Positions 50,176-50,602 of a stretch of DNA of 64,000 bases are shown here, piece after piece. Position numbers and translations under genes: made by a program. Position 1 is the first letter of the stretch. Each line of letters starts with the position of its first letter. Below the pieces are notes generated by a model that searched no databases, was not told the origin of the DNA, and saw only the letters and a program-made list of their open reading frames with translations. Source of the stretch: a virus (lineage: Duplodnaviria > Heunggongvirae > Uroviricota > Caudoviricetes); the IMG/VR virus record IMGVR_UViG_3300035494_000066; one strand, 5' to 3'.

Positions 50176-50240
50176 CAGGATAGTATTCATTGGATTTGCG
50201 TATGAGGCAAAGATATGAATTGTTTGCTGTAACTATCCTA
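50176..50240 (-). ncRNA. Y-like RNA copy 1, carrying an anticodon stem-loop (CAU)
   Basis: AGGATAG-TT-ACAGCAA...TTTGC-CTCATAC-GCAAA...CTATCCTG. Confidence 0.7.
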
Positions 50241-50262
50241 AAAGTGGTGCTCGCAAGCAAGC

Positions 50263-50283
50263 AAAAAGCATCCAAAGGATGCT
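50263..50283 (-). terminator. Terminator-like hairpin inside the tRNA array
   Basis: AGCATCC-TTT-GGATGCT followed by TTTT. Confidence 0.5.
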
Positions 50284-50302
50284 AGTGTAGCACTTAAGCT
50301 AC

Positions 50303-50361
50303 CGGGGTAGCGGTTTCTTTAATAGTATGATAAGAAATTAAAGTGTGCTGCAACTACCCTA
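50303..50361 (-). ncRNA. Y-like RNA copy 2
   Basis: AGGGTAG-TT-GCAGCAC...CTACCCCG; inner stem CTTTAAT/ATTAAAG, loop contains TCATAC. Confidence 0.65.
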
Positions 50362-50364
50362 AAT

Positions 50365-50440
50365 TGGAGCGTCTAAGGGGACTCGAACCCCTACCTAGAG
50401 GGTGGAAACCTCGTATGCTGCCGTTAAACACCATAGACGC
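50365..50440 (-). tRNA. tRNA-Gly(TCC)
   Basis: Cloverleaf, loop TTTCCAC, U73, CCA. Confidence 0.9.
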
Positions 50441-50453
50441 ATTAACCTAAAAT

Positions 50454-50531
50454 TGGTCGGAACAGCAGGATTCGAACCTGCGACCCTCTGGTCCCAAACC
50501 AGATGCGCTAACCAGACTGCGCTATGTTCCG
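50454..50531 (-). tRNA. tRNA-Pro(TGG)
   Basis: CGGAACA acceptor, loop TTTGGGA, CCA. Confidence 0.95.
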
Positions 50532-50537
50532 ATAAAA

Positions 50538-50602
50538 CAGGATGGTATCGTACTAGTTTGATTAAGAGTCAAATGTATGATTGGGTTGCTGTAACCATCC
50601 TA
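50538..50602 (-). ncRNA. Y-like RNA copy 3, carrying an anticodon stem-loop (CUU, Lys-like)
   Basis: AGGATGG-TT-ACAGCAA...TTTGA-CTCTTAA-TCAAA...CCATCCTG. Confidence 0.7.

Follow-up and report, generated by a model that had tools for sequence, protein, structure and literature searches.

Introduction

The bacterial Y RNAs YrlA and YrlB (RF02553; Chen et al. 2014, PMC4201824), together with Yrl1 and Yrl2 of phage phiLo (PMC12135203), are the closest described relatives of the RNAs reported here. These small RNAs are encoded beside a Ro60-fold gene and on the same strand, and each locus has several paralogs. Their ends are paired in a long stem from which a conserved motif bulges, and they carry modules that mimic tRNA. 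Phages that encode both Ro60 and Y-like RNAs are already known (mycobacteriophages, CcrColossus, phage G and phiLo), and the Ro60 of the Thermus phage phiLo binds two Y-like RNAs and host PNPase (PMC12135203). The same features recur in the window analysed here, a stretch of 64,000 nucleotides (nt) from the Caudoviricetes record IMGVR_UViG_3300035494_000066 (IMG/VR), which holds six short RNA elements (copies 1-6) and a gene for a Ro60-like protein. Copies 1 and 3, both within a minus-strand tRNA operon (50079-52264), are very probably Y-RNA-like partner RNAs of this protein that display a mimic of a tRNA anticodon arm. This reading is preferred because the loops in question are non-random, the helices covary, and all 132 matches of a covariance model of the family lie on the strand of the Ro-like gene.

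The comparison with YrlA also brings out several differences. The motif in the part that joins the RNA ends (hereafter the handle) is UUNCAGCAA and not GNCGAAN0-1G/CGAA, the protein is of the DUF2828 type and is not recognised by the Pfam TROVE model, the copies are scattered through a tRNA operon, and the short members (mini RNAs) display the anticodon arm alone, i.e. the part that YrlA lacks. The RNAs are thus best filed as a Y RNA variant in which a CAGCAA handle replaces the CGAA motif of YrlA and a bare anticodon arm is displayed. Neither the CAGCAA handle, nor its spread through tRNA operons beside DUF2828-type Ro proteins, nor the display of a bare anticodon arm was found in Rfam 15 or in the literature searched.

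Cleavage of tRNAs is emerging as a common bacterial defence, which phages are known to answer with spare tRNAs and with enzymes for repair. Phage T4 repairs the damage done by PrrC with Pnk and Rnl1, using Rnl1 to reseal the cut tRNA-Lys. Phage T5 counters PARIS/AriB with nuclease-resistant tRNAs of its own (PMC11464382, PMC12409363). The present genome is similar to these in its tRNA cluster and Rnl1-type ligase, in the presumed conflict and in its likeness to targeted arms (Lys, Thr, Asn). However, those measures replace or repair tRNA, whereas here a non-decoding mimic would soak up or sense the nuclease, of which no description was found in the literature searched. If true, phages would have a third type of answer, namely a non-decoding RNA on a Ro60-like protein that presents nothing of a tRNA but the part under attack. 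Phage Ro60 proteins would thereby gain a concrete role, and among them is one with a counter-defence phenotype and no known RNA partner.

Two short RNAs with an anticodon-type arm

On the minus strand, copies 1 (50176-50240) and 3 (50538-50602) match the family's covariance model R1 (see below) with 55.8 bits (E 2.5e-9) and 64.1 bits (E 4.6e-11), respectively. Their folds are stable (-14.9 kcal/mol, z -4.4 for copy 1; -14.1 kcal/mol, z -3.6 for copy 3), with a three-tier rod as both the minimum free energy (MFE) and the centroid structure in RNAfold, and none of 200 shuffles folds as well. The rod of copy 1 is closed by a helix of 7 bp plus G, above which come the UUACAGCAA bulge, a middle helix of 6 bp and the apical arm. 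The end helix is AGGAUAGU/ACUAUCCU in copy 1 and AGGAUGGU/ACCAUCCU in copy 3, and the 5' bulge that contains UUACAGCAA is 11-12 nt long in both.

The apical arms are UUUGC-CUCAUAC-GCAAA in copy 1 (50211-50195) and, on the same handle, UUUGA-CUCUUAA-UCAAA in copy 3 (50573-50557), exactly as read in the initial annotation of this DNA, which had also recognised that the two stems differ at one compensatory pair (C-G versus A-U, beside the loop). Stems of 5 bp and 7-nt loops with C32, U33 and A37 (CUCAUAC and CUCUUAA) were likewise read correctly, and give both copies the form of a tRNA anticodon stem-loop, namely a 5-bp stem and a 7-nt loop with a pyrimidine at 32, U33 and a purine at 37. In shuffled sequences, a best hairpin with a YU-NNN-R-N 7-nt loop arises at a rate of ~0.004 per sequence, from which we calculate a probability of ~2e-4 that two of the five mini copies in the window would carry such a loop by chance.

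As had been claimed, copies 1 and 3 are without a tRNA body: neither ARAGORN nor the Rfam tRNA model calls them, and they have no T or D arm. CCA is also absent from both, the end helix being followed by GUU or GUA, and the tRNAs of the cluster that were read do encode CCA.

The earlier description of the other mini copies holds as well. Copy 2 (50303-50361, minus strand; R1 24.8 bits, E 0.0085) has the handle AGGGUAG...CUACCCC with UUGCAGCAC, and a 7-bp apical stem with a larger, 13-nt loop that contains UCAUAC. Copy 4 (50865-50922, minus strand; R1 42.5 bits) and copy 6 (52011-52068, minus strand; R1 38.8 bits), which are 89% identical, have the loops AUUGGC (not anticodon-like) and AUUUGGC, and a near-consensus promoter (52114-52087) adjoins copy 6. 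Copy 5 (51731-51852, minus strand), a match to the handle descriptor given below, combines the handle with a permuted tRNA-like module and shares with YrlA the layout of T arm, hairpin and D arm; against the YrlA model of Rfam (RF02553; gathering score 69) it reaches no more than 32.3 bits (E 1.3e-5), and copies 1 and 3 give no YrlA match in Rfam.

A conserved handle and its Ro60-like neighbour

The distribution of the handle was examined in 80 IMG/VR loci that carry the Ro-like gene. An alignment-based scan was required for their retrieval, as a scan of IMG/VR with a single Ro-like protein as the query gave no match. A descriptor of the handle (AG-helix, 1-4 nt, CAGCA, 12-150 nt, helix', CYG) finds 208 matches on the strand of the Ro-like gene versus 18 on the opposite strand, with 2-15 for scrambled motifs, and 73 of 82 sources are positive. 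The covariance model R1, built from 33 mini RNAs that were chosen with a pairing rule and for anticodon-type hairpins, gives 132 matches at E <= 0.01 in 81 loci, and every one of them is on the strand of the Ro-like gene. Within the 302-kb genome itself, all six R1 matches are located within 4 kb around the Ro-like gene, and none in the other tRNA array, which has 29 genes; both the Ro-like gene and R1 matches are lacking from T4 and T5. A blastn search of a phage collection with one mini RNA found no match.

Both helices covary. In the alignment, 99.5% of the cells are paired (35-47% in slid controls), a percentage that is partly built in since the seeds were picked by a pairing rule, a choice that does not affect the strand asymmetry or the scrambled controls. 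Two-sided changes are found in 101 cells, compared with 26.6 in shuffles. The closing 7-bp helix is 100% paired with four covarying pairs, and CAGCA is invariant in the 5' bulge. A test of the closing helix from its 5' half alone (8-mer, G-U pairs allowed, 200-nt range) was set aside as too unspecific (21% vs 10%).

The handle also carries other loads. In the Felix O1-type E. coli phage HY02, four homologous RNAs lie immediately downstream of the Ro-like gene (L001 6713-7396), with the variant closing helix AGAAGACC...GGUCUGG, and one of them is YrlA-like. Whole tRNA bodies with D, anticodon and T arms are found on the same handle too (L030:1187-1292 and L004:8565-8660). Taken together with copy 5 and the mini RNAs, these versions indicate that the handle family shows a whole tRNA, the elbow alone, or the anticodon arm alone. 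A further tRNA-like gene was seen in Pseudomonas phage Milchi (PQ464597.1), where an 85-nt, CCA-ending element (L089:10134-10218) has CCGUCAGCAAUGACGG in place of the anticodon arm and CAGCAA in the loop, and is assigned no amino acid by ARAGORN.

The copies are located 0.6-2.5 kb downstream of a gene for a 470-aa protein (52667-54079, minus strand), on the same strand. Pfam places this protein in DUF2828 and DUF7788 (E 2.6e-46 and 2.2e-26). Its AlphaFold2 model (pLDDT 82.9, pTM 0.80) predicts a ring of HEAT repeats and a vWA domain, and in a Foldseek search of the Protein Data Bank (PDB) the top 13 matches of the model are all Ro60/TROVE proteins (E 7.7e-10 to 4e-6, TM ~0.6 along the entire chain), their sources being Xenopus, human, Deinococcus (Rsr) and Thermus phage phiLo; vWA domains come far behind. 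A profile of the protein family against PDB sequences gave only marginal TROVE chains (E 0.05), so that it was the fold search that decided the matter: going by the model, the neighbour has the Ro60 fold, and the link of the repeat family to a Ro-like ring protein, as initially proposed, stands even with the Pfam TROVE model unmatched. The family is large, with more than 7,600 proteins at E <= 1e-5, and occurs in 711 phage records, among them Felix O1-type, T4-like, Vibrio, Campylobacter, Listeria and Staphylococcus phages and mycobacteriophages, where depositors have named its members 'RNA-binding', 'Ro-like' or 'vWFA' protein. According to database annotations, DUF2828 proteins also occur in eukaryotes.

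We infer that the 470-aa protein is the partner of the RNAs, which presumably bind to its ring. The best sign, albeit an indirect one, that the handle may be the binding site of the Ro-like protein is another copy of the handle, which lacks the hairpin and is located in the 5' leader of the Ro60-like gene (54088-54134, minus strand; R1 26.1 bits, E 0.0045), between the promoter at 54171-54144 and GGAGA. The 3' strand of this handle enters the GGAGA ribosome-binding site, and due to this overlap it is probably an autoregulatory site through which the Ro-like protein would control its own translation. The same arrangement recurs in many related loci and in Stenotrophomonas phage DLP_6.

Outside phages, the handle may have a counterpart in the Class I RNAs of Dictyostelium (RF01414; Kjellin et al. 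2021, PMC7919456), which are ~60 nt long, have been reported as unique to dictyostelids and are bound by an RRM protein. Similar to the RNAs described here, they have a short stem that joins the ends, CUUACAGCAA directly after its 5' strand, a CUG(U) end and a variable remainder, and positions 50176-50238 (copy 1) align to the RF01414 consensus GaUcuCCUUACAGCAA...GagAuCUG with 21.8 bits, below the gathering score of 41.5. They differ in being eukaryotic and in that no anticodon-type loop has been reported for them, and the likeness to the handle is that of a sub-threshold alignment. Judging from these motifs, the handle may link the viral family to these unexplained eukaryotic RNAs.

Loop survey across the family

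MFE folding of whole, A/U-rich mini RNAs often pairs the CAGCAA and thereby hides the apical hairpin, hence it was replaced by a search for the most stable local hairpin in the inner part of 88 distinct mini RNAs, with mononucleotide shuffles as controls (n=200). Loops of 7 nt are found in 40 of the 88 (shuffle mean 6.7, maximum 14), the pattern YU-NNN-R-N in 29 (shuffle mean 0.36) and CUNNNAA in 28 (shuffle mean 0.11, maximum 2). Anticodon-type 7-nt loops are therefore strongly enriched among homologs, and loops of random length and sequence, which would have spoken against the mimicry proposed in the initial annotation, are clearly not what is found. In the 33-sequence seed alignment, which was picked for such hairpins, U33 is invariant, C32, A37 and A38 are each present in at least 90%, and the changes in the stem are compensatory. 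When 90 mini matches are aligned with R1, 69 have the form of a 5-bp stem and a 7-nt loop, 51 have YU-NNN-R-N and 42 have CU-NNN-AA, although such an alignment leans towards the model's own structure.

The 51 canonical loops in this alignment contain 15 different triplets: UGU (13), CAU (8), UCU (6), UGA (5), GUA (4), UUU (3), GUU, GGA and GAA (2 each) and six singletons. Position 34 is never A, and none of the triplets is the anticodon of a stop codon; we take all 15 to be anticodons of bacterial tRNAs. The CAU of copy 1, initially labelled as Met, is present in the loop as described, yet its identity as a Met anticodon is doubtful because UCAUA-type loops form a separate, conserved class, found chiefly in the copy that lies immediately upstream of the Ro-like gene. 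Base pairing of these loops with the anticodons of tRNAs (kissing loops) was considered and dropped, as by our own reckoning UGU, CAU and UCU, the most frequent triplets, have no complementary bacterial anticodon.

How the triplet evolves was followed in 18 disjoint nearest-neighbour pairs that differ by no more than 12% outside the triplet. Across these pairs, the triplet (34-36) has 0.204 differences per site versus 0.043 elsewhere (Fisher p 4e-5). The other parts of the RNA are uneven: the closing helix with its flanks (0.008), the arm stem (0.011) and the CAGCAA region (0.013) hardly change, the 3' linker (0.047) and the loop frame formed by positions 32, 33, 37 and 38 (0.097) are intermediate, and the 5' linker (0.151) comes nearest to the triplet. 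Compared with both linkers together, the triplet is weakly above their rate (odds ratio 2.2, p 0.04). Positive selection on the triplet is not claimed, its rate being marginally above that of the 5' linker. One pair, L060:3697-3760 and L043:1532-1595, is identical except for UGU versus GUA, a swap that involves one deletion and one insertion and leaves the loop at 7 nt. What can safely be concluded from these alignments is that selection acts on the shape of the arm and its frame and that the identity of the triplet is not conserved.

Likeness to tRNA-Lys and possible function

The anticodon arm of E. coli lysT is GUUGA-CUUUUAA-UCAAU, and at least 120 genome stretches contain the surrounding 29-nt segment without any change, these being from Gammaproteobacteria and some other Proteobacteria, with no Pseudomonas among the matches listed. 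Copy 3 is identical to this proteobacterial tRNA-Lys(UUU) arm at 14 of 17 positions, departing from it at the outermost pair and at position 34, with the caveat that the reference arm may not be that of the host. The two have in common the 5-bp stem, the 7-nt loop, C32, U33, A37 and A38, as well as the letters UAAUCA (U36AAUCA41), and the site of AriB is U36AAUC|A41 (PMC12409363). The copy 3 mimic does not duplicate the phage's own tRNA, as the phage tRNA-Lys arm (UCCGC-CUUUUAA-GCGGG) agrees with copy 3 at only 9 of 17 positions. In Pseudomonas phage Milchi, a mini RNA with the arm UUUGA-CUUUUAA-UCAAA is located directly before that phage's own, differently stemmed tRNA-Lys gene, and has the same loop as the proteobacterial arm and 15 of its 17 letters. 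Unlike tRNA-Lys, the mini RNAs have no acceptor-T-D body or CCA, their stems are A/U-rich family-wide and the triplet is not conserved.

PrrC recognises mainly the anticodon arm, and bare 17-mer arm analogs are cut by it (PMC1950546). In the Felix O1-type phage Bas63, the gene of the Ro60-like protein gp130 is located upstream of the tRNA genes. This protein was found to counteract the defence system Ppl, and the authors of that study guessed that some of the 'tRNA genes' of this phage are Y RNAs (PMC11482910). The likeness to tRNA-Lys, the properties of PrrC, the RNA ligase and the Bas63 phenotype together make a role in a conflict over tRNA likely, and fit a decoy as well as an adaptor (see below).

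The mechanism that we propose would work as follows. The constant handle, a 7-bp helix that starts with AG, ends with CU-G and has UUNCAGCAA bulged on its 5' side, would join the ends of the RNA and most likely dock it on the Ro60-like ring encoded ~2 kb upstream. The variable apex would then be the part displayed by the particle, in this subclass a 5-bp stem and 7-nt loop with the frame C32, U33, A37 and A38 around a variable triplet. Its likeliest job would be tRNA mimicry towards host factors that read anticodon arms, tRNA-cutting defence nucleases foremost, with the arm on the Ro-like particle serving as a competing substrate, an inhibitor or bait. As a whole, this account of Ro-docked partner RNAs that mimic tRNA towards anticodon-arm readers is the best explanation at hand, even if we hold it as somewhat short of probable. 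That the arm acts specifically as a decoy or bait for anticodon nucleases is plausible from the comparisons above, though on the doubtful side. That bare anticodon-type arms occur is a real and general observation; a decoy function is, for its part, a reasonable hypothesis and not a result. It can be tested directly, because the search rules are simple and a cultured member exists (Pseudomonas phage Milchi).

Several points weigh against this account. The design is not universal: the loops of copies 2, 4 and 6 are not anticodon-like, nor are those of three HY02 mini RNAs (AGGUAAA, UGCGGAU and one loop of 10 nt). No part of the RNA changes faster among close relatives than the triplet, which implies that the identity of the mimicked tRNA is not conserved. 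Position 34 of copy 3 is C and not U, when the E. coli tRNA-Lys genes that were read all have the anticodon UUU, and AriB additionally requires a contact with U16 in the D-loop that a bare arm cannot offer. Strict mimicry of one targeted tRNA is hence weakened by the freely changing triplet and by the D-loop requirement of AriB, while the bare anticodon-type stem-loops and their link to a Ro-like protein remain. In addition, the stems of the mimics are A/U-rich, unlike most real tRNA arms, and so many tRNA nucleases are known that almost any triplet finds some target. As regards the assignment to Y RNAs and Ro60, the Rfam gathering scores are not reached, the GNCGAAN0-1G motif is absent (the bulge is UUACAGCAA, and copy 5 has GAUGAAUA at the aligned place), and the Pfam TROVE model finds no match anywhere in the genome. 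The widest version of the proposal, in which RNA counter-defence on a Ro60-like particle with fast-swapped triplets that track nucleases is joined to a handle that forms the core of the Dictyostelium Class I RNAs, is accordingly one that we regard as quite unlikely to hold in all its parts.

Alternative explanations

The foremost alternative is an adaptor function like that in the bacterial machine of Ro60, Y RNA and PNPase, and known Y RNAs do serve as tethers. The arm may connect the Ro-like ring with an enzyme that handles tRNA (for example PNPase, a synthetase, an RNA ligase or a modification enzyme), or it may steer the ring to tRNAs and so bring about the repair or removal of damaged ones or redirect a host enzyme. 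We consider the two forms jointly as rather unlikely, even though the Thermus phage Ro60 with its two Y-like RNAs offers a precedent in that it binds and dampens host PNPase (PMC12135203). Sister copies that show the tRNA elbow (copy 5) or whole tRNA bodies would fit handles that each serve another tRNA-binding partner, RNA ligase genes exist in this genome and beside the Ro-like gene of Serratia phage BF, and a fixed loop frame around a free triplet would suit a factor that reads the generic shape of an anticodon loop. Yet a bare arm offers little surface to partners of the PNPase type, and the sole experimental phenotype of a homolog is counter-defence, which is equally compatible with a decoy.

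The mini RNAs may instead be regulatory fillers that occupy, gate or titrate the Ro-like protein, in which case the apical hairpin would be a stabilising cap with a look that descends from tRNA. This we judge to be unlikely. The handle is indeed the most conserved part of the RNA (0.008-0.013 differences per site), the hairpin-less leader copy suggests that the handle alone is enough for binding, many copies have non-anticodon loops and the triplet drifts at about the rate of the linkers. Furthermore, the 7-bp closing helix followed by G resembles an acceptor stem with a discriminator base, and together with the whole-tRNA versions this makes the descent of the family from tRNA plausible. However, a mere cap would not be expected to retain a 7-nt loop, U33, C32, A37 and A38 amid compensatory changes in the stem (bearing in mind that the seeds were partly preselected), the L060/L043 pair has swapped its triplet through a deletion and an insertion and still kept 7 nt, and position 34 is never A although its surroundings are A-rich.

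Lastly, it is most improbable that these are no separate functional RNAs at all but spacers within the tRNA operon, elements for its processing, or tRNAs without arms that serve in translation, since, despite their position between tRNA genes in a single orientation and an end helix that looks like an acceptor stem (7 bp plus G), they track the Ro-like gene and not tRNAs, are missing from the larger tRNA array of this phage and from T4 and T5, include one copy with its own promoter and another in an mRNA leader, encode no CCA, unlike the cluster tRNAs that were read, have no T or D arm, and carry a conserved CAGCAA that has no role in tRNA.

Genomic setting and further elements

The window gives the reverse strand of a record of 302.5 kb from an uncultivated giant phage; this record is ~85% complete, and near-identical DNA is found in metagenome runs from tar pits and hydrocarbon sites. 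The tRNA operon has eleven tRNA matches (ARAGORN and the Rfam tRNA model); the second and larger array of 29 tRNA genes is located elsewhere in the same genome. As the RNA elements are interspersed among the tRNA genes in one orientation, they would be co-transcribed with them, and the mini RNAs are presumably released from transcripts of the operon. The promoter scan found near-consensus minus-strand promoters at 54171-54144, 52300-52273, 52114-52087 and 51979-51952, and a scan for consensus signals alone gave a terminator-like hairpin, AGCAUCC-UUU-GGAUGCU followed by UUUUU, between copies 2 and 1 (50267-50283, minus strand). Metatranscriptome contigs from three libraries of one study, representing a relative that is ~95% identical, span 50176-50440, 50453-51818 and the Ro-like gene; such contigs cannot give RNA ends, strand or level, and may include carried-over DNA. 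Stretches without contigs from the RNA libraries (48534-49868 and 52272-52538) are no evidence of silence.

The tRNA match after the perfect TTGACA-16-TATAAT promoter (52300-52273) is a 115-nt element (52150-52264, minus strand; Rfam tRNA 44.8 bits) with a long internal insertion that bears a UUUCAGCAAC motif (52200-52220) from the repeat family D4, and is probably a hybrid of tRNA and handle. Positions 36-41 read UAAGCG, UAAGCG and UAAUGA in the phage tRNA-Lys(UUU) and both tRNA-Thr(UGU) (genome 132845-132920, 149214-149288 and 149647-149722, the last two being 51125-51199 and 50691-50766 in the window), where the tRNAs targeted by AriB have UAAUCA; T5 tRNAs owe their resistance to AriB to changes of this kind. 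An open reading frame for an HNH endonuclease is located within the operon (51205-51522, minus strand; PF01844, E 3.8e-5), which is also the case in tRNA clusters of T5-like and other phages.

An RNA ligase domain of the T4 Rnl1 type is encoded outside the locus (38620-39138, genome 161275-161793, minus strand; PF09511, 44.9 bits, E 2e-12), and the same genome also encodes an Rnl2-type ligase. Pfam searches of the genome for RtcB and a CCA-adding enzyme were negative; with the record ~85% complete, these results and the one for TROVE do not prove absence. In Serratia phage BF (L090, NC_041917.1; 4271-7479 and 10826-11938), a gene annotated as RNA ligase is found two genes upstream of the Ro-like gene and a tRNA nucleotidyltransferase gene 3.3 kb downstream of it, and Cronobacter phage S13 has a tRNA nucleotidyltransferase gene near its Ro-like copy. 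Upstream of the Ro-like gene in the window, the region 55104-57292 (minus strand) encodes a methyltransferase that weakly matches the CmoB-type family (PF08003, E 1.4e-6) and an FAD enzyme of 458 aa that falls in the tryptophan-halogenase family (PF04820, E 3e-80).

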